A stretch of DNA of 64,000 nt from Verrucomicrobiota bacterium (GTDB taxonomy: Bacteria > Verrucomicrobiota > Verrucomicrobiia > Limisphaerales > UBA11358): positions 749,379 through 813,378 of the forward strand of contig JBEKRQ010000001.1 of NCBI GenBank assembly GCA_049517655.1, written 5' to 3'. Below are positions 11,557 through 25,456 of the stretch, piece after piece. The number at the start of each line of letters is the position of its first letter. The first letter of the stretch is position 1. A model generated the notes under the pieces. That model did no database searches. It was not told the origin of the DNA and worked only from the letters and a program-made list of their open reading frames with translations. The position numbers and the translations under genes were made by a program.

Positions 11557-12642
11557 TCAATCATTCGACAACACATTAATGACCGCGTCAAATGCCGGCT
11601 TCGCCTGAAGCTTTCGGTCAAACAGCAATGGATAATTCGTGCGGCTTTTCCACAGGTTATAGTTCAGCCACGACTGACCGTCTTCAACCCCCCAGAATGT
11701 AACGCGCGGAATGAGATCGCGGTGTCTCTTGAAAATTGTAAACAATTCCGCATACCGTCCTGCCTCTTCTTTAAGAACTTTAGCAGGGACACCTGCTTTG
11801 TACGGATTGCTTCCATCGCGTGGCAACACATCCACATCCAGCTCCGTCACGATCACCTTGATCCCTTCTTTCCCCAACGCCTCGATCCCCGTTTCGATCA
11901 CGCTCGCATCGGGATACTGCAGGTGCCAATGCCCCTGTATCCCGATCGCGTCCAACCTTATGCCCGCCGCCTTGAGACTGCGAATCAATCGGATCACCTT
12001 CGGAAGCTTCACCGGGTCTTCCACGTTGAAATCGTTGTAATAGAGCGGCACATCCGGATCCGCCGCGTGCGCAAACTCAAACGCCTTCTGCACATAATCC
12101 TCTCCAATCGCCCGCAGTGCCGGCGTATCGCGTAAATACTCCCCAGGCTTGTCACTGATCGCCTCGTTCACCACATCCCAACTGCTCAGTTTCCCCTTGA
12201 AGTGTTTCATCACCGTTTCGATATGGGACTTCAAGTTCGCCAGTGCCTGCTCTCGCGGCAGCGGCTTATGCTTCGCATCCTCAAACATCCACGGGGGCGT
12301 CATCTGATTCCAGCACAGCATATGCCCGGTCACCGGCAATCCATGCTCTTGCCCAAAAGCCACAATCTGATCCGCTGCATTAAACGTAAACTTACCCGGC
12401 TCCGGCTGCAGAGAAGAGGGCATAAATTCGTATTCCCCCGTCAGACAATCAAACTGCTTGAGAATCAATGCTACTGTCGCCGGGTCGTCTAATTGCTTCG
12501 ATCGGATCGCAGCCCCAATCAAGAATTGATTCCCCGCCGCTTTGCGCAAAGTGGCCTTTTGCTTTTCTCCGCCAATAGTCACACAAAAGAAAAGCATCGC
12601 AACCGTCGCGACACCAAGCCATCCTCGCCATCGTAAGTTCAT
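11557..12642 (-). CDS. secreted GH10 endo-1,4-beta-xylanase
   Basis: N-terminal hydrophobic signal. GH10 catalytic motifs WDVVNEA (acid/base Glu) and VIVTELDVDV (nucleophile Glu). Confidence 0.9.
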   Translation of the reverse strand: MNLRWRGWLGVATVAMLFFCVTIGGEKQKATLRKAAGNQFLIGAAIRSKQLDDPATVALILKQFDCLTGEYEFMPSSLQPEPGKFTFNAADQIVAFGQEHGLPVTGHMLCWNQMTPPWMFEDAKHKPLPREQALANLKSHIETVMKHFKGKLSSWDVVNEAISDKPGEYLRDTPALRAIGEDYVQKAFEFAHAADPDVPLYYNDFNVEDPVKLPKVIRLIRSLKAAGIRLDAIGIQGHWHLQYPDASVIETGIEALGKEGIKVIVTELDVDVLPRDGSNPYKAGVPAKVLKEEAGRYAELFTIFKRHRDLIPRVTFWGVEDGQSWLNYNLWKSRTNYPLLFDRKLQAKPAFDAVINVLSND

Positions 12643-14333: not shown

Positions 14334-15158
14334 ATGAAAAATAAACTTTCAGTTATTCTTGCCATTGCGGTGTTTTTGCTTTCCAGCCCGTGCATTTTTG
14401 CCGCGGAAACCAACGACCCCACCGTCGAGTTCAAAGCTTTGGTCACAAAAATCAATGCCGACATTCGTGCGGGCAATAGGACGGAAACAGCCCTGGCCGA
14501 TGACCTGAAGCAATTCGATGTCCTGCTGGCCGAGCACAAGGGCGAAAAGACCGATGCCGTCGCCCGGATTTTATATATGAAAGCCGTGTTGTATGGCGAA
14601 GTTCTCCACAACGACGCAAAAGCCGCCGAACTCAAGAAACAACTCAAGACCGATTTCAAAGGCACCAAATTCGTAGCTTCCCTTGAAAAGCAGGAGGCAA
14701 GGCAGGCCGAGGCGAAAAAGATTCAAGCTGGCTTGGTGGAAGGGATGAAATTTCCCGACTTCAACGAGAAGGACACGGCGGGCAAACCGCTTTCCATTGC
14801 CAACTACAAGGGCAAGGTGGTGCTCGTGGATTTCTGGGCGACCTGGTGCGGGCCGTGTCGCGCCGAACTGCCCCATGTCATTGCCACCTATAAAAAATAC
14901 CACGACCAGGGATTTGAAATCATCGGCATCAGCCTAGATCAGGATCAGGCAAAACTCACCGGGTTCACCAAATCCATGAACATGACGTGGCCGCAATTTT
15001 TCGACGGCCAGGGCTGGCAAAACAAACTGGCCGTCAAATATGGCATCCAAAGCATCCCGGCGACCTTCCTGCTCGATGGCGAAGGGAAAATCATCGGCAA
15101 GGATTTGCGCGGCAAAGAATTGGAGCAAGCCGTCGCAAAAGCAGTGGCAAACAAATAA
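14334..15158 (+). CDS. TlpA/ResA-family periplasmic thiol:disulfide oxidoreductase
   Basis: Signal peptide (MKNKLSVILAIAVFLLSSPCIFA) and thioredoxin motif WATWCGPC. Start moved inside ORF 14259..15158. Confidence 0.85.
   Translation: MKNKLSVILAIAVFLLSSPCIFAAETNDPTVEFKALVTKINADIRAGNRTETALADDLKQFDVLLAEHKGEKTDAVARILYMKAVLYGEVLHNDAKAAELKKQLKTDFKGTKFVASLEKQEARQAEAKKIQAGLVEGMKFPDFNEKDTAGKPLSIANYKGKVVLVDFWATWCGPCRAELPHVIATYKKYHDQGFEIIGISLDQDQAKLTGFTKSMNMTWPQFFDGQGWQNKLAVKYGIQSIPATFLLDGEGKIIGKDLRGKELEQAVAKAVANK
14760..14857. repeat. 98-bp tract 100% identical to 17040-17137
   Basis: Base-by-base comparison of the two TlpA-module genes. The flanks are clearly diverged. Confidence 0.9.
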
Positions 15159-15230: not shown

Positions 15231-17438
15231 ATGAAATTTCCCTCCTCGGCTTCCAAGACATGGATTCAGCCTTTGCTCGTAACCTGCTTGATTTTTGTGT
15301 CAGTCGTGGGGTGTAATAAAATAAATTCATCTTCCTCGGGGAAAAAACTCGAATCTTCACCCCCTATTTCCGCCAATGACAAGGCAAGACAGGAACGGTT
15401 AAATTGGAACCTTCAAACTCTTGTAATGGCGTATGAAAAGGCAGGCCATACCGGCCGACCATGGGATACGTCAGCTAAAAACGCTTTGACTGAGTTCGCC
15501 CGCTTGAGATCACAAGTGACTGAAACTAACGAGCGCGGGGCACAAATTATTGCGACAAATTGCGAAGCTGCCGTCAAAGCCGGATGCGATGACCCGCTGA
15601 TTGCCTATCTCCACACGCGTTTCGTTCTGGACCAGACCAACACACCCAAGATTTTCGCCGACGCGTTTTTGAAAAACGCACAGGATATCCAACAAAGCAC
15701 ATATCCAAGTATCCGGAAGTTTTATGTTTCGTTACGGGCAGTACAACAGATTTACTACACATTTGGCACAAATGCAGACAGCCAAGAGATCCAAGCCGCT
15801 GGCGGCCGGCTCTTGGAATATCTTATGGGCGCCCTTAATGACAAAACGACGCCACCCGGCGAAGTTTACGAAGCATGTCTTGAAGGTCTCAATGCATACC
15901 AAGGGGACAAGAATCTGTATGAGCAATTTTACAACCGCATCGAAAAGCCCTTATTCGAGAACTGGCCGGATGAATCCGAATCCTGGTTATTAAAAGGAAA
16001 AGCCCATATCGAAATGGCATGGCATGACAGGGGCTTTAGTTACGCTGATAAAGTCAGCGAAGAAGGCTGGGAAGGGTTCGAAAAGCATCTCAAGACCGCC
16101 GAAGAAGCACTGAATCAGGCATGGACACTCAACCCCAAAGACTTGCGCATTGCCAACACAATGCTCGTGTTGGAATTAGGACAAGGGAAAGGTCGCGACC
16201 GGATGGAATTGTGGTTCAAGCGGGCAATGGCACTGGATCCCAACTCCTACGAAACTTGCGACCAAAAACGGTACTACTTGGAACCCAAGTGGTACGGCTC
16301 GGATGAGGACATGCTGGCGTTTGGCTGGGAGTGCACCGAGAGCACCAATTGGGGCGGGAAAGTGCCATTGGTGCTATTGGACGCCCACGAGGCCATCCAG
16401 CGTCACCTCGACAAATCTGATCAGGACAATTATTGGACACGTCCTGAGGTATGGTCCGATATACAAATGGCATTTGAAAAGTTTTTTCAACTCAACCCGG
16501 ATGCCACCAGTTGGTATCACAATTACGCCTGGTATGCCTATCACTGCGGACAATGGCGCAAGTTGAATGAGTTGATTCCCAAACTCGGTCCGGTCAATTA
16601 CTCCTACTTTGGAGGCAAGGCCGAGTTCGACAAAATGGTGAGCCTCGCCAGAGAGCATGCTGGTGAAACCAACGCAGAGATCAACACTACGCTGATCGAA
16701 ATCTATCGTTTGAATACAAAAATCGACGCCAAGGTGCATGAAGGCAAACAGACGGAAAACGATTTCGCGGACTTGTTGCAACAATGCGACACCTTACTTG
16801 CAAAACATAAGGACGAGAAAACTGATGAGGTGGCTCAAATTCTTTTTGCCAAAGCCAGCTTGTACTTGCAGGTTTTTGACAACGCGCAGAAAGGCCGGGA
16901 ATTGATTCTCCAACTTAAGCAAGATTTTCCCGAGACCAAACTAGGCAGGAACGCGGATAAAATTCTCGCTTTGATCGAACGTCAGGAAGAGGTCAAAAAG
17001 ATCAACCATGCACTAGCTGAAGGAATTCAATTCCCCGAGTTCAACGAGAAGGACACGGCGGGCAAACCGCTTTCCATTGCCAACTACAAGGGCAAGGTGG
17101 TGCTCGTGGATTTCTGGGCGACCTGGTGCGGGCCGTGCGTGGCTGAGTTGCCCAATGTGCAGGCAACTTACCAGAAACATCATGCGCAGGGTTTCGAGAT
17201 CATCGGTGTCAGCCTGGATGCAGATCAGCAAAAGTTCGAAAGCTTCATCAAACAGAAAAATATGACCTGGCGGCAATACTTCGACGGACAGGCTTGGAAC
17301 AATAAACTGGCCATAAAATACGGGATTGAAAGCATCCCGGCGACCTTCCTGCTCGACGGCGAAGGGAAAATCATCGCCAAGGATTTGCGTGGTGAAGAAT
17401 TGGAGCAAGCCGTGGCCAAGGCACTGGCTAAAAAATAA
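15231..17438 (+). CDS. lipoprotein: ~460-aa helical-repeat N-terminal module fused to a complete TlpA-like thioredoxin module
   Basis: Lipobox-like LIFVSVVGC. The C-terminal ~270 aa are homologous to the whole mature product of 14334..15158, including WATWCGPC. The N-terminal part is W/Y-rich and helical (DUF4034-like by recollection). Confidence 0.8.
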   Translation: MKFPSSASKTWIQPLLVTCLIFVSVVGCNKINSSSSGKKLESSPPISANDKARQERLNWNLQTLVMAYEKAGHTGRPWDTSAKNALTEFARLRSQVTETNERGAQIIATNCEAAVKAGCDDPLIAYLHTRFVLDQTNTPKIFADAFLKNAQDIQQSTYPSIRKFYVSLRAVQQIYYTFGTNADSQEIQAAGGRLLEYLMGALNDKTTPPGEVYEACLEGLNAYQGDKNLYEQFYNRIEKPLFENWPDESESWLLKGKAHIEMAWHDRGFSYADKVSEEGWEGFEKHLKTAEEALNQAWTLNPKDLRIANTMLVLELGQGKGRDRMELWFKRAMALDPNSYETCDQKRYYLEPKWYGSDEDMLAFGWECTESTNWGGKVPLVLLDAHEAIQRHLDKSDQDNYWTRPEVWSDIQMAFEKFFQLNPDATSWYHNYAWYAYHCGQWRKLNELIPKLGPVNYSYFGGKAEFDKMVSLAREHAGETNAEINTTLIEIYRLNTKIDAKVHEGKQTENDFADLLQQCDTLLAKHKDEKTDEVAQILFAKASLYLQVFDNAQKGRELILQLKQDFPETKLGRNADKILALIERQEEVKKINHALAEGIQFPEFNEKDTAGKPLSIANYKGKVVLVDFWATWCGPCVAELPNVQATYQKHHAQGFEIIGVSLDADQQKFESFIKQKNMTWRQYFDGQAWNNKLAIKYGIESIPATFLLDGEGKIIAKDLRGEELEQAVAKALAKK
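17040..17137. repeat. 98-bp tract 100% identical to 14760-14857
   Basis: See the partner tract. It covers FNEKDTAGKPLSIANYKGKVVLVDFWATWCGPC. Confidence 0.9.
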
Positions 17439-17444
17439 TTTTTG

Positions 17445-18296
17445 TTACGTGCTCGCGCTGGTGTAACGGCGGATGGAGAAGCGCCAGAACCATTCGGAAA
17501 TGAGCGCCCAAATAACACCCAAGCCGAACAGCGCCGACAAAGCGGCGGGCGATGTCAATTTGTCCGCCAGCACGCGCACGGGCACGTTGGACACCAGCAA
17601 CACCGGCAAGGCGAAGGTGAACACGGCCTTGAACACGCCGCGAAACGCTTCATCCGGCATCCGCGCGATGTTGAACAGATTGTAGTAGCCCCACACGATG
17701 CCTTGCGCGCGCACGGTCCAAAAACTCACCGAGGCAAGCATGAACATGAGCGAGTAATGCACCAAAAGCCCGACAACGCACAAAGCGGCAAAGACGAGCA
17801 ACTGCGCGGTGGTTGGGTGCAAATGTAATTTCCCTGCCGCAAAAACCATGACGCACACGGCGAACGCGGCGTTGGCAAATGACGGCAGGTCCACCTGTCG
17901 CATTGAAACGAGGAAACGCGTGTTGACCGGCAGCAGCAGCAGGAAATCCATTTTGCCCGTGCGGACGAGTTCGGAGAGGTTCGTGCAGTTCACGAGAAAG
18001 AACGCCTGGTAAATTTCCTGGATAAAATTGCTCGTGCCGGTGAGTAGCACCACCTGCCACACCGTCCACGTGCCGACGGTGCTGGTTTGACTGAAAAGAA
18101 CGCCGACAAAGGCGAGTTGCAGTCCGAACCACAGCAATTCGACGACAATCCAAAGAATAAAGTTGCCCTTGAACGACATTTCGCGCGTCACGGAAGTTTT
18201 CCACAACGCAGCGTAAATGGTGAGATAACGAGCGACGCCGGATACGAGTTGCGTGACGCCCGTTTCTGCCTTCTGTCTTCTGCCTTCTGCCTTCAT
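17445..18296 (-). CDS. ABC-2 type transporter permease (PF06182-like), second of pair
   Basis: Multi-TM protein typical of ABC-2 family permeases. Start moved to MKAEGRR, immediately after the stop of the upstream permease. The first codons are encoded by the heptamer array 18264-18294. Confidence 0.6.
   Translation of the reverse strand: MKAEGRRQKAETGVTQLVSGVARYLTIYAALWKTSVTREMSFKGNFILWIVVELLWFGLQLAFVGVLFSQTSTVGTWTVWQVVLLTGTSNFIQEIYQAFFLVNCTNLSELVRTGKMDFLLLLPVNTRFLVSMRQVDLPSFANAAFAVCVMVFAAGKLHLHPTTAQLLVFAALCVVGLLVHYSLMFMLASVSFWTVRAQGIVWGYYNLFNIARMPDEAFRGVFKAVFTFALPVLLVSNVPVRVLADKLTSPAALSALFGLGVIWALISEWFWRFSIRRYTSAST
18264..18294. repeat. heptamer array TTCTGCC x4
   Basis: ttctgcc ttctgtc ttctgcc ttctgcc at the junction of the two ABC-2 permease genes. 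Encodes MKAEGRRQKAE. Confidence 0.85.
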
Positions 18297-18300
18297 TTCA

Positions 18301-19110
18301 TCATCCTCCAAACGCGGCGTATTTCTTAATGCCGCGCCGCCACGCAAATCGCGCAAGCGCATAACCAATCAACACCCAACCCGCTTGCACAAACATTCCA
18401 CGCAGCAAATCCGCACCCGCAATTTCGCCAGTGTAAATGCCGATGGGGAAATAAAGCATATACGGAAACGGCGTGAAGAAGAGCGCGTGTTCCAGCGCGG
18501 GACTTATAGTATGCAATAGGGGGAGTGGAAATAGATGGCCGCTGGCGATGTATTCGAACGCGAACAAAATGAAAATGAACGTGGAAATTTCCAGCACCCA
18601 AAACGCGAGCATCGCCATCGCGTAGGAAATGAAAAATTGCAACAGCGCCGTCAGCACCAGCGAAATCAGGAAGGCCGCCAGCGCCAAGCCGTCCGGCGGG
18701 AAAATAAAATAACCGCGCAAACAAAAAACGAAAATCGCCAGCGGCACGACGGCCACGGTCATATACGCGACGCGCCCGGAAAAAAACAGGCACAGCCGAT
18801 ACCATAAATAATCAATCGGCTTGAGCAGGAACTGGCTGATGTTGCCTTCGCGAATGTCGGCGGCGATCTGCCAGTCGTCCTCGTTTACCGCCGTGAGCAC
18901 GTCCACAACGGCGACAAGCAGATAATAGGAAATCATTCCCGACAGGGTGTAACCGGAAATTGTCGCGCCCTTCGCCGCGTAAATGGTGCGCCAGAGCGAC
19001 AGCATGGCGAACAGCGGGATGAAGCTGAACAGCGTTCGCGTCAGGTAATTGAAGCGATACGTCAGGTTGTTTTGAATCCCGATGCCGATGACATGCCAGT
19101 ATTTTTTCAT
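18301..19110 (-). CDS. ABC-2 type transporter permease (PF06182-like), first of pair
   Basis: Multi-TM protein with N-terminus MKKYWHVIGIGIQNNLTYRFNYLTR. Start moved inside ORF 18301..19170. There is no cognate ATPase gene upstream. Confidence 0.6.
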   Translation of the reverse strand: MKKYWHVIGIGIQNNLTYRFNYLTRTLFSFIPLFAMLSLWRTIYAAKGATISGYTLSGMISYYLLVAVVDVLTAVNEDDWQIAADIREGNISQFLLKPIDYLWYRLCLFFSGRVAYMTVAVVPLAIFVFCLRGYFIFPPDGLALAAFLISLVLTALLQFFISYAMAMLAFWVLEISTFIFILFAFEYIASGHLFPLPLLHTISPALEHALFFTPFPYMLYFPIGIYTGEIAGADLLRGMFVQAGWVLIGYALARFAWRRGIKKYAAFGG

Positions 19111-19112
19111 TC
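18980..19112. repeat. 133-bp direct repeat, copy 1 (5' end of the ABC-2 permease gene)
   Basis: Three mismatches versus 21663-21795 by manual alignment. Weaker similarity continues for ~30 bp beyond. Confidence 0.9.
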
Positions 19113-19262
19113 CTATGCAGACACGCTGGAAATTTAGTTGCGATAGACCGGAACGCGAAGGGAAAATCAAAGCGATGAAATTTGAAAATCATTACTTTTC
19201 TACTTGTCATTGCAGCGTTCCGTTGCTAAACTTTTAGCTTAGCTTTCAACCGAGGTGACCTG

Positions 19263-21665
19263 ATGAAAAGATGTTTTTCACTCGTTTTGGCGGGGTGCGC
19301 AATGTTTATGTTTTCTCCTTCTTCGGCACGCGCCGTTCCCGGCGACGAGCATTGGGACCCGCAATTCAACTGGCCGGGCACGACGAATATCATCATGGGC
19401 ATTGGAATCGGCGGCGGAAAAATTTATGCGGGCGGCGAGATCAGCGCCGGCACGCTGACCAATGCGCCGCTGGAAGTGTGGGACGGTTTGCAGTGGTCCA
19501 CGATAGGTGCTTTTACCGGCAGCCCCGCAGTCATCGAAGATATTGCCGTTGCAGGCGGCACGCTGTATGTCGGCGGAGTTTTCACGACTGTCAATGGCGC
19601 AGCGATCAACGGGCTTGCCAAATGGGACGGGACAAGCTGGAGCGGAATTGGCTTTTCCGGCATCGTTTACGGGTTGGCCGTGAACGGCAATAATCTTTAT
19701 GTGGCCGGCTCATTCACCAATACCGACGCTGGCGGCGTGATGATGACCAACATCGGTTATTGGGATGGGAGCGCCTGGCACGCTTTGGGTGGTGGCCTCG
19801 GAACACCGGGCACCGGCTCGGCAAGGGTGGTCGCCGTCAACAACGGTCTGGTTTACGCAGGCGGTTCTTTCACCAATTCCGGCTCGCAACTCATCACGAA
19901 CCTCGCGGTGTGGAATGGTTCCGGTTGGTCGGCGGTCGGCGGTGGAGCCAATTCAGTTGTTTATGCCCTGACATTCAACGGAACTGATCTTTACGTCGGC
20001 GGCTCCTTCACGCAGGCTGGCCCCACGCTGGCGACGAACATTGCCAAGTGGGATGGCGTGAACTGGTCGGCGGTCGGCGGCGGTTTGACCGGCACGGGCA
20101 GCAGCGTGAACAGCCTCGCTGTTTTCAATGGCTCGGTTTGCGCGACGGGCGTGTTCACCAACGCCGGCGGGTTGATGGTGGCCAACTTCGCGGTTTGGAA
20201 CGGCTCGTCATGGTCGGTGGCCAACGGCGGCATCAGCGCGACCGGCTACCGCGTCGTCAACAACGGCACAAACGTTTATGTCGGCGGCAATTTTATTTCA
20301 GCAGGCAACAAATTGATGAACGGCATCACGGCCTGGGATGGCGTGAATTGGAACCCCATTGGAACCGCCGGCCGAATCAACGGCATTTATGCCACCGTCC
20401 GGGCTTTGGCCGGCGATGGGACAAATTTATACACAGGCGGAAGCTCGTTTTATTGGGCGGGACAAACCAACGTGAACCTGATCGGCCGCTTCGACGGCAC
20501 GAATTGGTATCCGCTCGGCACCGGCATCAGCGGGTCAAGCGTCATCAGCGGCCCCATCGGCACCGGTATTCTCACCATCGCCCTCACCAATAATTACGTT
20601 TATGCCGGCGGCTATTTCACAAACGCCGGCGGTGTGCCAGTAACCAACATCGCTTCCTGGAACGGGTCAAACTGGTCTGCGATGGGCAGCGGCCCCGGCG
20701 GCGTGGTGGCTTCCATTCTCGTCCGCCCGGACGGCGTTTATGCGGTGGGCGCGCCGTTTTACAATGTCAGCTATTACAACAGCCCGTTTTTCTCCCGTTG
20801 GGACGGTTCGAGCTGGCAGGGTGTTACCATCAACTTTCCGCCTTATACCGATTGGGAAACTTCTATTAGTCCCAACCTTGGCATGGCCGCGTTGGCCTGT
20901 ATCGGCACCAACATTTTCATCGGCGGCTATTTCTACCTTGGTGAATATACCAATCCACCTTCCGGCTATGTCGGCTGCAACAATATCATGCGCTTCGACG
21001 GCACATACGGGTGGGTCATGGGCATGGGACTCAGCAGCAACGTCACCGCCATGGCCGTCATCGACACCAATCTTTTTGTCGCAGGACAGTTCACGAATGC
21101 CAGCGGCGTGGCGGCCAGCAAGATTGCCCTGTGGAATGGCAATTACTGGACGAATCTTGGCAGCGGGCTGGTTGGCAGCGGCGTTATCAACGGGCTGGCG
21201 ACCATGGGCGGGAATCTTTACGTCGGCGGCACGTTCACCAACATGGGCGGCACACCGGTTAATCGCATCGCCAAATGGGACGGTACAAATTGGTCCGCGC
21301 TCGGCAACGGCGCCACTTATCCCGGCTTGAGCAGCGCCTCCATCTTCGGTCTCGGTGTTTTGGGCAACAGCCTTTATGCCAGCGGAAGTTTCCGAATGAT
21401 GGGTGACAAGCCGTCGTTCTACATCGCGCGTTGGAACGAGCAGAAGAATTTCGACACGCCGCAAATCAGCCCCCTCTTCGTGACCAACGGTCTGTTTCGC
21501 ATGCGGCTTTTCGGAGTCAGCGGCATGACCAACCTCATTCAGGCTACTACCAATTTTACCACTTGGACGCCGATACTGACCAACAGTGCCGGTATCTACG
21601 ACTTCAGCGACCCGAACTCTTCAAGTTATCCCTTCAGATTTTACCGCGCGGTTCTTGGCCCATAA
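19263..21665 (+). CDS. secreted beta-propeller-type repeat protein
   Basis: Signal peptide, then about 14-16 units of ~50 aa with the pattern W(D/N)G..W..(L/V)G.G....V.AL...G..LYVGG.FT..GG....NIA.W. C-terminal domain ends ...YPFRFYRAVLGP. Confidence 0.7.
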   Translation: MKRCFSLVLAGCAMFMFSPSSARAVPGDEHWDPQFNWPGTTNIIMGIGIGGGKIYAGGEISAGTLTNAPLEVWDGLQWSTIGAFTGSPAVIEDIAVAGGTLYVGGVFTTVNGAAINGLAKWDGTSWSGIGFSGIVYGLAVNGNNLYVAGSFTNTDAGGVMMTNIGYWDGSAWHALGGGLGTPGTGSARVVAVNNGLVYAGGSFTNSGSQLITNLAVWNGSGWSAVGGGANSVVYALTFNGTDLYVGGSFTQAGPTLATNIAKWDGVNWSAVGGGLTGTGSSVNSLAVFNGSVCATGVFTNAGGLMVANFAVWNGSSWSVANGGISATGYRVVNNGTNVYVGGNFISAGNKLMNGITAWDGVNWNPIGTAGRINGIYATVRALAGDGTNLYTGGSSFYWAGQTNVNLIGRFDGTNWYPLGTGISGSSVISGPIGTGILTIALTNNYVYAGGYFTNAGGVPVTNIASWNGSNWSAMGSGPGGVVASILVRPDGVYAVGAPFYNVSYYNSPFFSRWDGSSWQGVTINFPPYTDWETSISPNLGMAALACIGTNIFIGGYFYLGEYTNPPSGYVGCNNIMRFDGTYGWVMGMGLSSNVTAMAVIDTNLFVAGQFTNASGVAASKIALWNGNYWTNLGSGLVGSGVINGLATMGGNLYVGGTFTNMGGTPVNRIAKWDGTNWSALGNGATYPGLSSASIFGLGVLGNSLYASGSFRMMGDKPSFYIARWNEQKNFDTPQISPLFVTNGLFRMRLFGVSGMTNLIQATTNFTTWTPILTNSAGIYDFSDPNSSSYPFRFYRAVLGP

Positions 21666-21793
21666 ATCGTGCGCCAGAGCGACAGCATGGCGAACAGCGG
21701 GATGAAACCGAACAGCGTTCGCGTCAGGTAATTGAAGCGATACGTCAGGTTGTTTTGAATCCCGATGCCGATGACATGCCAGTATTTTTTCAT
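21641..21793 (-). pseudogene. 5' fragment of the ABC-2 permease gene (duplicate of 18980-19112)
   Basis: Encodes MKKYWHVIGIGIQNNLTYRFNYLTRTLFGFIPLFAMLSLWRTIY, then runs antisense into the end of the propeller gene and stops after 50 codons. Confidence 0.7.
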
Positions 21794-21795
21794 TC
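21663..21795. repeat. 133-bp direct repeat, copy 2
   Basis: Begins exactly at the stop codon of the beta-propeller gene and includes a duplicated permease start codon. Confidence 0.9.
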
Positions 21796-21936
21796 ATTCA
21801 CAAACGTTTGGAAATTTATCTGCGCAAAATGGAATTGCGATTCAATTTTTATTGCCGAACAACGCGTCCGCAATTAGTGTTAGCGCCGGTGATTGCCATT
21901 TGTGCCAGTCAACGCAACATTTAGGACCAAAGACGT

Positions 21937-24114
21937 ATGACAAGGAAACCTCTCGCAGGCGCGGAATTGAACGGGCTGGTTGCGGGCTTGAACAAGTTGT
22001 CCCGCAATTTGTGGTGGAGCTGGGATCAGGAGGCGCAGGATTTATTTCAGGAACTCTCGCCGCGCAGTTGGCAAAATCTTTATCATAACGCCGCCGCCAT
22101 TTTGCGCGAAGTCTCGGAATACGAACTGCGCGTGCGCCTGCAAGACGCTGACTTTGAGCAACACGCGCGCGCGGTCTTGCACGATTTCGAGGCGTATCTC
22201 GCCTGCAAAAGCACCTGGGGACACGTGAATGCTCCGCAATTACTCCAAAATCCCGTCGCGTATTTTTCCGCCGAATTTGGTTTTCACGAGTCGCTGCCGA
22301 TTTCGGCGGGCGGCCTCGGCATCCTGGCCGGTGACCACGCAAAATCCGCCAGCGACCTTGGCCTCGGCTTCGTCGGCGTCGGTTTATTTTACCGCGAAGG
22401 TTATTTCCAGCAGGCCATTGACTCGAACAACTGGCAGACCGAATTCTACAATCTGGTGGATCCGCAAAACGTGCCGCTCGAACCCGTGCTGGACGCCAAT
22501 GGCCAGACGCTCGTGTGCGACGTGGAAATTGACATGAATCACGTCTTCTTTCAGGCGTGGCGCGTGAACGTCGGGCGCGTGCCGGTATATTTGCTCGACG
22601 CCAACCGCCCGGAAAACGCCGAGCATTTCCGCGATTTGACGGCGCGCGTTTATGGCGGCGACGGCACAATACGCATCATGCAGGAAATCCTGCTCGGCAT
22701 CGGCGGGGTTCGCCTGCTGCACAAGCTCGGCGTGCAGCCGTCGGTCTTTCACATGAACGAGGGTCATGCGGCCTTCCTGACGCTGGAATTGATCCGCGAA
22801 AAACTGGCCACCGGACAAAAATTTACTGACGCGCTCGCCGCGACCCGGGCGCAATGTATTTTCACCACCCACACGCCGGTTGAAGCCGGACACGACCGCT
22901 TCGCCCCCGAATTGATGGACTACGCGTTCCTGCTTTACCAGCACCAATTGCCCGTGCCGTTTCAGGACATCATGCCGTTGGGCCGCGTGCATCCCGAGAA
23001 CGCGCACGAGCCGTTTTGCATGACTGTGCTCGCGCTCAAGCTGTCGCGCGCCGCCAACGGCGTGAGCGAACTGCACGGCGACACCAGCCGCCGCATGTGG
23101 CAATCCCTTTATCCCGGCACCCCCGTCGAAAAAGTCCCCATCGGCCACATCACCAACGGCATTCACCTGCTCGGCTGGATGAAAGGTTCGGTGCGCCAGT
23201 TCTGGCGGGAAAAAATGAAGGACAAGAGGGCGGGCGTGGTCAAGATGTGGGACGAAAAATATGGACACGATTGGGCGTCGGCGATTCACCACCATGAATT
23301 CTGGAAAAAAATGGCCGACGCGTCGTTCGTTTCCGATGAGGAACTTTGGGCGCTGCGCTACAAATTGCGGCGCGAGATGATTGAATTCATCCGCCGCCGT
23401 CTGTCGCACCAAACCCAGCGCATCACGCCCGGCGATTACATCCGCTTCGATCACCTGCTGAATCCCGATGCGCTGACCATTGGCTTCGCGCGCCGCTTCG
23501 CCACTTACAAACGCGCGCCGCTGATTTTCCAGCAATTTGACAACATCGTGAAACTCGCGCACGACAAACAGCGGCCGGTGCAGTTTATTTTCGCCGGCAA
23601 GGCGCATCCGCGCGATGACGAAGGCAAACGCTTCATCCAGCAAATCATTTGCCTCAGCAAACAGGGTGAATTGGCGGGTAGTGTGGTGTTTGTCGAAAAC
23701 TATGACATTCACATCGCGCGGCAGATGGTTTCCGGCTGCGACGTGTGGCTGAACAACCCGCGCCGCCCGCTGGAAGCCTCCGGCACCAGCGGCATGAAGG
23801 CCGGCTGCAATGGCTGTTTGAATTTCAGCATTCTGGACGGCTGGTGGCGCGAAGGCTACGACGGCACCAACGGTTTTGCCATCGGCGGCGATTCAAATCC
23901 GGACAACGTCGAGGAACAGGATCGCGTGGACAGCGCCAATCTTTACCAGACGCTCACCGAACAGGTCATTCCAATGTTCTTCGACCGCGACGAACAAGGT
24001 ATTCCGCGCCAATGGATTCAGCGCATTCGCCGCGCGATGGTCACGCTTGTGCCGCAATTCACCACCGACCGCATGGTCAAGGAATACACGCGGAAGTATT
24101 ATCTGGCGAAATAA
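21937..24114 (+). CDS. glgP: alpha-glucan phosphorylase (GT35)
   Basis: 725 aa with the PLP-site motif EASGTSGMKAGCNG. Overall organisation matches the alpha-glucan phosphorylase family. Confidence 0.9.
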   Translation: MTRKPLAGAELNGLVAGLNKLSRNLWWSWDQEAQDLFQELSPRSWQNLYHNAAAILREVSEYELRVRLQDADFEQHARAVLHDFEAYLACKSTWGHVNAPQLLQNPVAYFSAEFGFHESLPISAGGLGILAGDHAKSASDLGLGFVGVGLFYREGYFQQAIDSNNWQTEFYNLVDPQNVPLEPVLDANGQTLVCDVEIDMNHVFFQAWRVNVGRVPVYLLDANRPENAEHFRDLTARVYGGDGTIRIMQEILLGIGGVRLLHKLGVQPSVFHMNEGHAAFLTLELIREKLATGQKFTDALAATRAQCIFTTHTPVEAGHDRFAPELMDYAFLLYQHQLPVPFQDIMPLGRVHPENAHEPFCMTVLALKLSRAANGVSELHGDTSRRMWQSLYPGTPVEKVPIGHITNGIHLLGWMKGSVRQFWREKMKDKRAGVVKMWDEKYGHDWASAIHHHEFWKKMADASFVSDEELWALRYKLRREMIEFIRRRLSHQTQRITPGDYIRFDHLLNPDALTIGFARRFATYKRAPLIFQQFDNIVKLAHDKQRPVQFIFAGKAHPRDDEGKRFIQQIICLSKQGELAGSVVFVENYDIHIARQMVSGCDVWLNNPRRPLEASGTSGMKAGCNGCLNFSILDGWWREGYDGTNGFAIGGDSNPDNVEEQDRVDSANLYQTLTEQVIPMFFDRDEQGIPRQWIQRIRRAMVTLVPQFTTDRMVKEYTRKYYLAK

Positions 24115-24117
24115 GTT

Positions 24118-24190
24118 GGTAGGGACATCCTGCCGGGATGTCCGCCACGGTCGCCCCGGCGGTGCGTTTCTACAAAGACGTCAGCCCTAC
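24118..24190. repeat. family-A variant directly 3' of glgP
   Basis: ggtagggac...cagccctac ends with an internal hairpin ggacatcc-tgcc-gggatgtcc. Confidence 0.7.
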
Positions 24191-24280
24191 GGGCTCGAAA
24201 AAATTCGCGCTCAATCCGCCCCGATTAATTTCCTTCCTTGCGCTCCTCTGCCCCGGTCGTAACCTTTCCGCCGGTCTAAT

Positions 24281-25456
24281 ATGAATTATCGTATTTCTCA
24301 ACGCGCCGCTTCACTGTCACTATCGCTCACGCTCGCCATTGACGCGAAAGCCAAAGCCATGAAGGCCTCGGGCGAGGACGTCGTTGGTTTCGGTGCAGGC
24401 GAACCGGATTTCGACACGCCGCAACACATCAAGGACGCCGCCGCCAAGGCGCTCGCCGCCGGGTTCACCAAATATACGCCGTCCAGCGGCATGCCGGAAT
24501 TGCGCCAGGCCATCGCCGACAAGTTCAAGCGCGAAAACGGCCTCACTTATAAACCGTCGCAAATCATCGTCTCCTGCGGCGGCAAACACTCGTGTTACAA
24601 CGTCATCATCACCACCTGCCAAGAAGGCGATGAAGTGCTCATTCCTGCGCCGTATTGGTTGAGCTACCCGGAAATGGTCAAGCTCGCCAGTGCCAAGCCG
24701 GTATTTCTGCAAACCACCGACAAGACCGAATTCAAAGTGACACCGCAACAGTTGCGCGCCGCGATCACGCCCAACACGCGGCTTTTCATTCTCAACTCGC
24801 CGAGCAATCCGACCGGCAGCGTTTATTCACCTGAAGAAAGCAAGGCGCTGGGCGATGTCTGCATTGAGAAGGGCGTGCTCATCATGAGCGACGAAATTTA
24901 CGAGCACCTGCTTTACGACGGCGCGGTGCACAAGAGCGTTGCCAGCTTCTCGCCTGCGCACCAGGAACACACCGTCATCGTCCACGGTTTTGCGAAGGCA
25001 TGGAGTATGACGGGCTGGCGTCTCGGTTTCCTTGCTGCGCCAGAACCGATTGCCAAGGCCATTGACGCCGTGCAAAGCCACAGTACAAGCAACCCGACGT
25101 CGTTCGCGCAAAAGGGCGCGCTGGCTGCGATTACCGGCTCAATGGATCATTTGAAGGCGTGGATTGCCGAATTTGACAGGCGCCGCCGGTTCGCATATCA
25201 GAAATTGAACAGCATTCCAGGCATTTCCTGCGTGAATCCGAAGGGCGCGTTCTATTTGTTCCCGAATATCTCGAAGACCGGCCTCAAAAGCACCGAATTC
25301 TGCGCGAAGCTTCTTGACGCGGAAAAGGTCGCCGCCGTGCCCGGCATCGCATTCGGCGCGGATGATTACATCCGTTTGAGCTATGCGACGAGCATGGCAA
25401 ACATCGAAAAAGGCCTGAAACGGATTGAGAAATTTGTGCGCAGTCTAAAAAAGTAA
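24281..25456 (+). CDS. aspC: aspartate/aromatic aminotransferase (class I)
   Basis: Motifs GEPDFDTP, NSPSNPTG and FAKAWSMTGWRLGF (PLP lysine). Confidence 0.9.
   Translation: MNYRISQRAASLSLSLTLAIDAKAKAMKASGEDVVGFGAGEPDFDTPQHIKDAAAKALAAGFTKYTPSSGMPELRQAIADKFKRENGLTYKPSQIIVSCGGKHSCYNVIITTCQEGDEVLIPAPYWLSYPEMVKLASAKPVFLQTTDKTEFKVTPQQLRAAITPNTRLFILNSPSNPTGSVYSPEESKALGDVCIEKGVLIMSDEIYEHLLYDGAVHKSVASFSPAHQEHTVIVHGFAKAWSMTGWRLGFLAAPEPIAKAIDAVQSHSTSNPTSFAQKGALAAITGSMDHLKAWIAEFDRRRRFAYQKLNSIPGISCVNPKGAFYLFPNISKTGLKSTEFCAKLLDAEKVAAVPGIAFGADDYIRLSYATSMANIEKGLKRIEKFVRSLKK

Follow-up and report, generated by a model that had tools for sequence, protein, structure and literature searches.

A 133-nt direct repeat in a 64,000-nt stretch of a genome of the Verrucomicrobiota (hereafter the window) brackets a gene for an 800-aa putative beta-propeller protein, which separates the ABC-2 permease gene perm1 from glgP. 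We consider the repeat likely to be the scar of one old duplicative insertion, of which the glgP-side copy was later refreshed by gene conversion. The ancestral gene order is still found in five relatives, other species share the junction and carry decayed remnants of the spare fragment, its preservation in the source genome is non-neutral, and the inserted segment carries no mobile-element genes. The locus provides a clean, datable example of a gene that entered a very tight space between divergent promoters and left neither neighbour disabled. It is tidy but ordinary genome evolution, and implies no new mechanism or function.

The repeat and its surrounding genes

A repeat search of the window returned positions 18980-19112 (copy 1) and 21663-21795 (copy 2), 133 nt each and spaced by 2683 nt, which match at 130/133 positions (98%). 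The original prediction of a 133-bp repeat with 3 mismatches was thus correct, and blastn against the whole 2.29-Mb genome found these two copies only. Copy 1, on the minus strand, comprises codons 1-44 of perm1, its ATG (19110), and 2 nt upstream, confirming that the repeated sequence is the start codon and first 44 codons of a permease gene (PF06182). Copy 2, also on the minus strand, begins exactly at the TAA stop codon (21663-21665) of the propeller gene, as had been noted before, and contains a 50-aa ORF (21793->21641). This ORF had been described as a decapitated permease fragment facing glgP, which is wrong: what has been left is the head, with promoter, ATG, and codons 1-44, and what is lacking is the body. 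The fragment diverges from glgP, and its reading direction leads into the 3' end of the propeller gene. The right junction (21663-21666) has at most 4 nt of microhomology, TAAA, which occurs both around the propeller stop codon and on the antisense strand at perm1 codon 44, with patchy similarity (~15/23) to the left of it. On the other side, upstream of the ATG, the copies abruptly become less alike, with an identity of about 70%. The ~30 bp of weak similarity that had been reported upstream of both starts, and taken to mean that the promoter region was duplicated as well, was recovered by blastn, which extended the homology to about 18970-19142 at 91-92%, with ~32 nt upstream of the ATG common to both copies. 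The weaker homology upstream of both ATGs covers about 30 nt, perhaps 70 nt.

The intact perm1 (18301-19110, minus strand, 269 aa) matches PF06182 with E=3.8e-18, and full-length orthologs with 55-81% identity were present in 34 of the 41 genomes searched (40 relatives and the source genome). The second ABC-2 permease gene, perm2 (17445-18296, minus strand; PF06182, E=6.6e-45), likely starts at the ATG at 18296, 4 nt after the perm1 stop codon. The longest ORF extends to 18368, and relatives align from about residue 33-47 of this long ORF, while gene callers give 283 aa. A perm1 promoter, read by eye, is predicted at 19131-19159 (minus strand), with TAAATT as -10 box (reverse complement of 19131-19136), a 17-nt spacer, and TTCGCG as -35 box (reverse complement of 19154-19159). 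The same spacing of the predicted motifs was seen upstream of perm1 in G016, G045, G004, and G003, and in copy 2. The propeller gene (19263-21665, plus strand) encodes a secreted repeat protein with about 15 internal repeats, whose sole domain match was a weak one to the Rax2 propeller, and no match was found in PDB or NCBIfam. Its C-terminus, FYRAxLGP followed by the stop codon, is native, being the same as in paralogs at other loci. A consensus scan predicted a propeller promoter at 19204-19232 (plus strand; TTGTCA, 17 nt, TAAACT), and orthologous intergenic regions have conserved an equivalent motif, TTGCC-N17-TAxxxT.

Downstream of the repeat, glgP (21937-24114, plus strand) encodes a GlgP-like alpha-glucan phosphorylase (TIGR02094, E=2e-246; PF11897, PF00343) and is the ancestral divergent neighbour of perm1. 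The region between copy 2 and glgP (21796-21936) aligns with the spacer between perm1 and glgP in G003 and G017, and in G016 with the spacer next to glgP. Judged from sequence motifs, it would hold two promoters: a spare perm1 promoter on the minus strand, with the -10 box at 21813-21818 and the -35 box ATCGCA at 21836-21841 (both as reverse complement), and a glgP promoter on the plus strand, with TTGCCG (21852-21857) as -35 box and TAGTGT (21875-21880) as -10 box. The two predicted -35 boxes are 10 nt apart. Terminator-like hairpins were no commoner than in shuffled sequences. Among the 26 loci searched, no duplicated fragments of the perm1 3' part or of perm2 were found, and perm1 5' heads were the only duplicated type.

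Age of the insertion and preservation of the second copy

It had been proposed to compare synteny with relatives, and this showed that glgP divergently adjoins the permease operon in five of them, with perm2-perm1 directly divergent from glgP in G017, G003, G020, and G008, which belong to the same genus, and in G028, which belongs to another family. It follows that the propeller gene was inserted between perm1 and glgP. It lies beside perm1 in 8 species, and these orthologs are 56-81% identical, as diverged as the flanking genes. The copy-2 spacer aligns with ancestral perm1/glgP spacers, and the copy-1 spacer with the perm1/propeller spacers of other species. A decayed relic of the perm1 5' end directly follows the propeller stop codon in G128, G105, and G101, with the same junction to the nucleotide, and a stop-A(T/C)CGTGC sequence recurs at the junction across species. 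The relics of G128 and G105 have kept perm1 codons 1-25 (tblastn E about 1e-10), share an internal deletion of ~52 nt, and are separated from glgP by two kinase genes. The relic of G101 has collapsed to 17 nt, with a score that was reached in 0/2000 shuffles. Propeller paralogs at other loci end with the same terminal residue, followed by unrelated downstream sequence. The junction common to these three genomes indicates that the insertion predates these species. The propeller-bearing species do not form a single clade on one unlinked marker tree (ATPase), thus a single gain would have had to be followed by losses, or by recombination that spread the gene. Paralogs of the propeller gene are numerous within the genus, and when their upstream regions were compared for the origin of the inserted promoter, these were too diverged to show a source.

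An old event combined with 98% identity means that a second explanation is needed for the identity. The full 133 nt of the perm1 head has been kept in the source genome only. Copy 2 differs from its own perm1 at 3/131 positions, with 0/84 in the ATG-proximal part and 3/47 further in, and from perm1 of other species at 6-30/131 positions, with at least 3-6 differences in the ATG-proximal part. The relics of G128 and G105 differ from each other at 8/85 nt, although these are the closest species pair, and neutral decay of the relic is thus fast. The G105 relic, in turn, is identical to its own perm1 at 62/63 positions. Concerted evolution through intrachromosomal gene conversion is seen for bacterial tuf or rRNA genes, as well as for genes paired with a pseudogene. 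As in concerted evolution, paralogous tracts within a genome were more alike than orthologous tracts between genomes, despite a duplication older than the species; here too a non-functional copy tracks a functional one, and the tract boundary is sharp where the flanking similarity ends. A second tract nearby, 2 kb away, also looks conversion-like: a perfect 98-nt match (14760-14857 = 17040-17137) links two TlpA genes that are otherwise 30-70% identical. What differs from the known cases is that the converted partner is a 133-nt gene head, and that the evidence here is indirect, consisting of non-neutral identity. Most likely, copy 2 has been kept near-identical to the live perm1 by gene conversion, in which the live 5' end would have repeatedly overwritten the spare fragment, and this would be why the fragment still looks new, with 98% identity, a 50-codon ORF, and an apparently intact predicted promoter. 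Gene conversion can keep a useless gene fragment new-looking for a long time, and for genome scans this means that a duplication cannot be dated from how closely a gene matches a fragment near it. Direct evidence of conversion is thin, in that the nucleotide states common to copies 1 and 2 (CAT, CAA, TTC, and CGA) also occur in some other species, and could be retained ancestral states instead of derived states inherited together.

Selection could also have maintained copy 2, as a promoter with a 50-aa membrane mini-protein, by way of an antisense transcript into the 3' end of the propeller gene, or as upstream regulatory DNA for glgP. This would fit with the undamaged ATG, ORF, and promoter-like -10/-35 pair, with the stability of the exact ORF in many assemblies, and with the position of copy 2 beside the predicted glgP promoter, with merely 10 nt between the -35 boxes. 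We nevertheless regard it as unlikely, since all other species that carry the fragment have it in truncated or decayed form, in G128 and G105 the kinase genes part it from glgP, and zero synonymous differences over 84 nt would not be expected under protein-level selection in a duplication older than the species. There was also no Rfam match at E<=1 to a structured RNA in or around the repeat (positions 17000-24500). The fragment is most likely functionless.

The 98% identity and the undamaged ORF do look young, and could suggest that the duplication is recent and private to the source genome, in which case similar junctions elsewhere would be independent or due to chance. Candidate relics in G016, G004, and G049 were seen by eye, and as they were not individually significant compared to shuffles, they were not counted as evidence. 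However, the junction is the same, nucleotide for nucleotide, in G128, G105, and G101, which also have decayed and significant perm1-derived sequence there, and the propeller orthologs beside perm1 have diverged like the flanking genes. The shared junction largely refutes a recent or private origin, which we consider very unlikely.

Proposed recombination mechanism and recurrence at the site

In the ancestor, perm2-perm1 and glgP would have diverged from a ~140-nt spacer holding two back-to-back promoters. A single illegitimate event may then have inserted the propeller gene, along with a promoter of its own, in this spacer, likely by a microhomology-mediated process, either replication template switching or one-sided homologous capture. 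About 170-200 nt, comprising the perm1 promoter and codons 1-44, would have been duplicated in this event, leaving one duplicate on the intact perm1 and the other on the glgP side, abutting the propeller stop codon. Several species would have inherited this arrangement, or acquired it by homologous recombination, and in most of them the spare fragment would have decayed. The absence of transposase and integrase genes and of terminal inverted repeats, together with a microhomology of at most 4 nt (TAAA) at the right junction, points to such an illegitimate or microhomology-type event duplicating the perm1 promoter and 5' end, in support of the illegitimate recombination suggested originally.

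Two known mechanisms resemble this reconstruction. In homology-facilitated illegitimate recombination, reportedly described in 2002 by de Vries & Wackernagel and by Prudhomme et al., the perm1 5' end could be the homologous anchor, and the other end may have joined at the 3-4-nt TAAA, joints of this kind having a microhomology of 3-10 nt. The difference is that the anchor was duplicated here, rather than being part of a replacement or deletion, and that the event is ancient, so that no donor can be named, the event being older than the sampled species, and the mechanism can only be inferred. The FoSTeS/MMBIR models of microhomology-mediated template switching, said to go back to Hastings et al. 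in 2009, likewise give a templated insert flanked by a duplication of the exit/re-entry site, with microhomology at the joint, and a propeller paralog within the genome could be the source; as a difference, the left junction here cannot be placed to the nucleotide. Homology-facilitated illegitimate recombination has been used to account for gene remnants displaced within Vibrio T6SS arrays (PMC5361080). At the present locus, a displaced remnant of a resident gene likewise lies beside a newcomer, comparable to the orphan 3' ends and immunity genes of Vibrio and Rhs arrays.

In Verrucomicrobia of peat and soil, the perm1-glgP interval is a gene-turnover hotspot. Across the genus, the site holds varying cargo, and G128 contains a second, independent duplication of the perm1 5' end, around a gene for a 218-aa secreted protein. 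The inner junctions of the perm1-head duplications differ (codon 44 versus codon 61). It is conceivable, if rather doubtful, that the highly conserved perm1 promoter and 5' end form a recurrent landing pad for gene gain in this genus of the Limisphaerales (the propeller gene, and the 218-aa gene in G128) by duplicative, anchor-dependent recombination, with the spare head as a working antisense or divergent promoter module.

Recurrence could also suggest a mobile or site-specific element with the propeller gene as its cargo, which would target perm1 at its 5' end or promoter and bring along a replacement for this part, like tRNA-gene islands. The variable cargo, the second duplication in G128, and three independent junctions that coincide to within a few nt, just past the perm1 -35 box, are in line with this. 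However, neither a transposase, an integrase, nor terminal inverted repeats were found in the bracketed segment, whose only gene is the propeller gene, and no integrase or recombinase was found in this segment of the window or in the orthologous loci of the 8 species. Moreover, the inner junctions differ, and the outer junctions can coincide simply because selection maintains both of two promoters that lie 10 nt apart. Such an element is therefore highly improbable. A transposon with a target-site duplication, which likewise leaves direct repeats bracketing the inserted segment, was rejected because there is no transposase, there are no inverted repeats at the segment ends, and the repeat of 133 nt, or ~170-200 nt with the diverged promoter part, is, as had been argued originally, too long compared to the 2-14 bp of such target sites. 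An integrative element with a duplicated att site was rejected since no integrase or recombinase is present in or beside the inserted DNA. A foreign composition of the insert was rejected as well; the comparison of base composition with the flanks that had been suggested showed that the propeller gene (GC 0.577, GC3 0.705) matches its neighbours.

Independent assemblies and the permease ATPase

The 133-nt repeat is real and no artefact of assembly. A JGI contig is 100% identical over 935 nt spanning the end of the propeller gene, copy 2, and the start of glgP, the fragment's 50-aa ORF occurs in exactly this form in 108 indexed blocks of public assemblies, and the gene order glgP, fragment, propeller, perm1, perm2 was found in 23/23 contigs read. 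The source is a metagenome-assembled genome and one short-read contig (L091) stops within copy 2, but the two copies differ at 3 positions, and with these independent contigs and the same architecture in relatives, the chance of an assembly or polishing artefact is negligible. The strains found do not differ anywhere between perm2 and glgP, both genes included, which makes them uninformative as to polymorphisms that co-vary in the two copies, and none of the contigs read had an excised form with perm1 directly beside glgP.

The original prediction considered the lack of an ATPase gene next to the permease pair atypical for ABC-2 systems. This is not a consequence of the insertion, as the ATPase is an unlinked orphan throughout the order; no ATPase gene was present beside the main perm1 copy in any fetched locus. 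A search elsewhere in the genome, as had been proposed, found a candidate, an orphan DrrA-like ABC-2 ATPase gene at G000:C3:395857-396831, without membrane-protein neighbours. This gene and perm1 are either both present or both absent in 38 of the 41 genomes searched, and perm1 and perm2 provide the two ABC2_membrane_6 permeases of an ABC-2 system. The orphan ATPase would be the cognate partner of perm1/perm2, which settles the question of the missing ATPase. In G038:C45, a paralogous ATPase-perm1 pair is contiguous.

Duplication of the perm1 head and its junctions

A repeat search of the window returned a direct repeat of 133 nt at 18980-19112 and 21663-21795 (98% identity, spacing 2683), in agreement with the original prediction of a 133-bp repeat with three mismatches. 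These were the only two copies found by blastn in the whole 2.29-Mb, 7-contig genome, and in this search the homology reached out to about 18970-19142 (91-92% identity). Copy 1 (18980-19112, minus strand) comprises the ATG (19110) and first 44 codons of perm1 (18301-19110, minus strand), the PF06182 ABC-2 permease gene that is paired with perm2. Copy 2 (21663-21795) begins, as had been predicted, at the TAA stop codon of the 800-aa propeller gene (19263-21665), which encodes a putative secreted beta-propeller, and contains a 50-codon ORF (21793->21641) divergent from the alpha-glucan phosphorylase-like gene glgP (21937-24114). The joint of propeller and copy 2 lies inside TAAA, a microhomology of at most 4 nt. 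Since the ORF holds the head of perm1 and reads into the 3' end of the propeller gene, its earlier description as a decapitated permease fragment used the wrong word. The expected similarity upstream of both start codons was also present, as ~32 nt there retain about 70% identity. Conservation of the perm1 head is unusually high for its DNA: among 19 species, mean pairwise identity is 0.86 for codons 1-44 (third positions 0.74) and 0.75 for the remainder (third positions 0.59). A hypervariable loop (codons 46-60) comes next, and the repeat ends exactly at the boundary between the two.

The duplicated structure is real and not an assembly artefact. Over 21097-22031, one JGI metagenome contig shows 100% identity, all three copy-2-specific bases included, the index of public assemblies lists the exact 50-aa ORF in 108 blocks, and the order glgP, fragment, propeller, perm1, perm2 was found in 23 of the 23 contigs examined, which were retrieved via the fragment or via glgP. 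The first 186 nt of one metagenome contig, L084 (JGI Ga0208036_1026566, positions 1-186), have no match in the genome, after which it joins the propeller at window position 21097; it is either chimeric or derived from a strain whose propeller gene is disrupted.

Ancestral gene order and age of the insertion

About 17 kb around perm1 was taken from 18 relatives, and the window genes were placed on each; the related contigs belong to peat and soil MAGs of Limisphaerales or Verrucomicrobiia. The predicted divergent adjacency of glgP and the permease operon was found in four genomes of the same genus (G017, G003, G020 and G008) and in one of another family (G028), with perm1-glgP spacers of 133-484 nt, and this is therefore the ancestral order. 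The DNA separating copy 2 from glgP can be aligned with these ancestral spacers, and the alignment takes in the promoter-like TTGCCG-N17-TAGTGT of glgP; the DNA from copy 1 to the propeller aligns with the perm1-propeller spacers of other species. The core of the original proposal stands, namely that an illegitimate insertion separated glgP from the permease operon and duplicated the promoter as well. Various genes have been inserted between perm1 and perm2 in the genus, without duplications there. Elsewhere in the genus, the perm1-glgP interval also contains MBOAT/AlgX genes.

Propeller orthologs (56-81% amino-acid identity) adjoin perm1 in G128, G105, G016, G101, G045, G049 and G004. In G128 and G105, the propeller stop is followed by A(C/T)(C/T)GTGC and then perm1 codons 1-25 (tblastn E about 1e-10), a decayed relic of the spare head with a common ~52-nt internal deletion relative to copy 2. 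In G101, the stop is followed by TCCGTGCCAGTATTTTTTCGT, whose score was reached by 0 of 2000 shuffles; this relic is the junction joined to the ATG-proximal end, the DNA between two TGC(G)CCAG repeats having been deleted. Weaker look-alikes at this position in G049, G004 and G016 were individually not significant and were left out of the evidence. Propeller paralogs at other loci have the same ...FYRAxLGP* end followed by unrelated DNA, and therefore the post-stop sequence is perm1-derived and the stop is at its native position. These junction relics show that the insertion is ancient and common to several species rather than recent. Of note, the propeller is tandemly duplicated in G101 (L035 1708-6475), and in G004 it is duplicated and frameshifted (L037 7836-12595), perm1 being frameshifted too.

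The perm1-adjacent propellers group in a single clade of the propeller tree, which also takes in two relocated copies. In the tree of the unlinked ATPase gene, the propeller-bearing species fall in four lineages and are not clearly monophyletic, and therefore a single gain requires either subsequent losses or spread through homologous recombination. Interspecies recombination at the locus is visible: the glgP protein is 93% identical to that of G105 and G017 and only 79% to that of G128, though G128 is the sister of G105, and one strain differs from this genome in the aminotransferase gene only, by 11.6%. That strain, L085/L090 (ENA ERZ27250117), is identical from perm2 through glgP, has 130 differences in the aminotransferase gene (window 24281-25456) and carries different downstream genes, which looks like a sharp recombination import boundary.

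Candidate insertion mechanisms and probable gene conversion of copy 2

No transposase, integrase or terminal inverted repeats were found in the inserted segment or the orthologous loci, and the suggested comparison of composition with the flanks gave no anomaly, the propeller (GC 0.577, GC3 0.705) matching its neighbours. The duplicated unit, about 170-200 nt long, extends from perm1 codon 44 to just past the predicted -35 box of perm1. Such a product would result from any process that departs from the locus at the promoter spacer, copies or introduces the propeller gene together with its own promoter, and rejoins at TAAA inside perm1. Replication template switching and one-sided homologous capture with an illegitimate second joint are both candidate processes, neither being preferred; the latter has been put forward to explain the displaced remnants of Vibrio T6SS arrays (PMC5361080). 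The locus is a well-documented instance of known processes.

G128 carries a second duplication, independent of the first, in which the perm1 promoter and the initial 61 codons are repeated (L033 10611-10820 versus 11774-11981; ~65 nt of upstream DNA through codon 61, with 92% identity over 211 nt), bracketing a ~1-kb insert with a gene for a 218-aa secreted protein that has no Pfam match. Genes for a PAS sensor kinase and a hybrid histidine kinase were inserted between the relic and glgP in G128 (L033 3717-7765) and G105 (L034 2921-7764), and the pair also lies between perm1 (or its relic) and glgP in G023 (L015 9484-12641), inverted relative to the other two. All three outer junctions are within a few nt of one another, just past the perm1 -35 box. 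A site-specific system could produce such coincidence, but survivorship is the simpler explanation, since the predicted -35 boxes of perm1 and glgP, as read by eye, are only 10 nt apart, and both genes would stay expressed only if an insertion falls in this gap or duplicates a promoter.

Neutral decay at the relic position is rapid: even in the closest species pair, G128 and G105, the two relics differ at 8 of 85 nt, and relic deletions occur in every other lineage. Copy 2 differs from its own perm1 at 0 of 84 ATG-proximal positions and 3 of 47 further in, and from perm1 of other species at 6-30 of 131 nt; upstream of the ATG, identity between the copies falls abruptly. Gene conversion from the live perm1 best accounts for this high identity, since protein-level selection on the fragment would leave synonymous differences. 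Conversion is plausible here, as the G105 relic is identical to its own perm1 at 62 of 63 nt, and a perfect 98-nt tract (14760-14857 and 17040-17137), which looks like a product of conversion, is common to two TlpA/redoxin genes that lie 2 kb from the perm1 repeat and are only 30-70% identical elsewhere. A weakness of the conversion reading is that states common to both copies are also found in some other species. The available strains of this species do not differ from one another at the locus, hence there is no co-varying polymorphism to observe. Two other close direct repeats in the genome, on C1 (658767-659120 versus 661255-661607; 354 nt, 98.3%, spacing 2488) and C2 (751554-751738 versus 754238-754422; 185 nt, 97.3%, spacing 2684), may be further tandem paralogs or conversion.

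A probable unlinked ATPase for the permease pair

None of the fetched loci has an ABC ATPase gene beside its main perm1 copy, which confirms the absence noted in the original prediction, and the recommended search elsewhere in the genome gave a candidate. Among the 22 ABC ATPase domains of this genome, one belongs to a DrrA-like 325-aa ATPase outside the window (contig C3, 395857-396831) that is without membrane-protein neighbours. Its orthologs are 66-91% identical, and in 38 of the 41 genomes searched they are present or absent in agreement with perm1. G038 has a paralogous ATPase gene (C45:16993-17964) directly upstream of a perm1 paralog (C45:16116-16913). The C3 ATPase is therefore the likely partner of perm1 and perm2, and the matching distribution and the contiguity in G038 suggest that the transporter is complete but split. 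This split arrangement is the norm for the order. Aside from this, the genome measures 2.29 Mb at 96% completeness, with same-genus relatives mostly at 3-5 Mb, and may represent a streamlined lineage.
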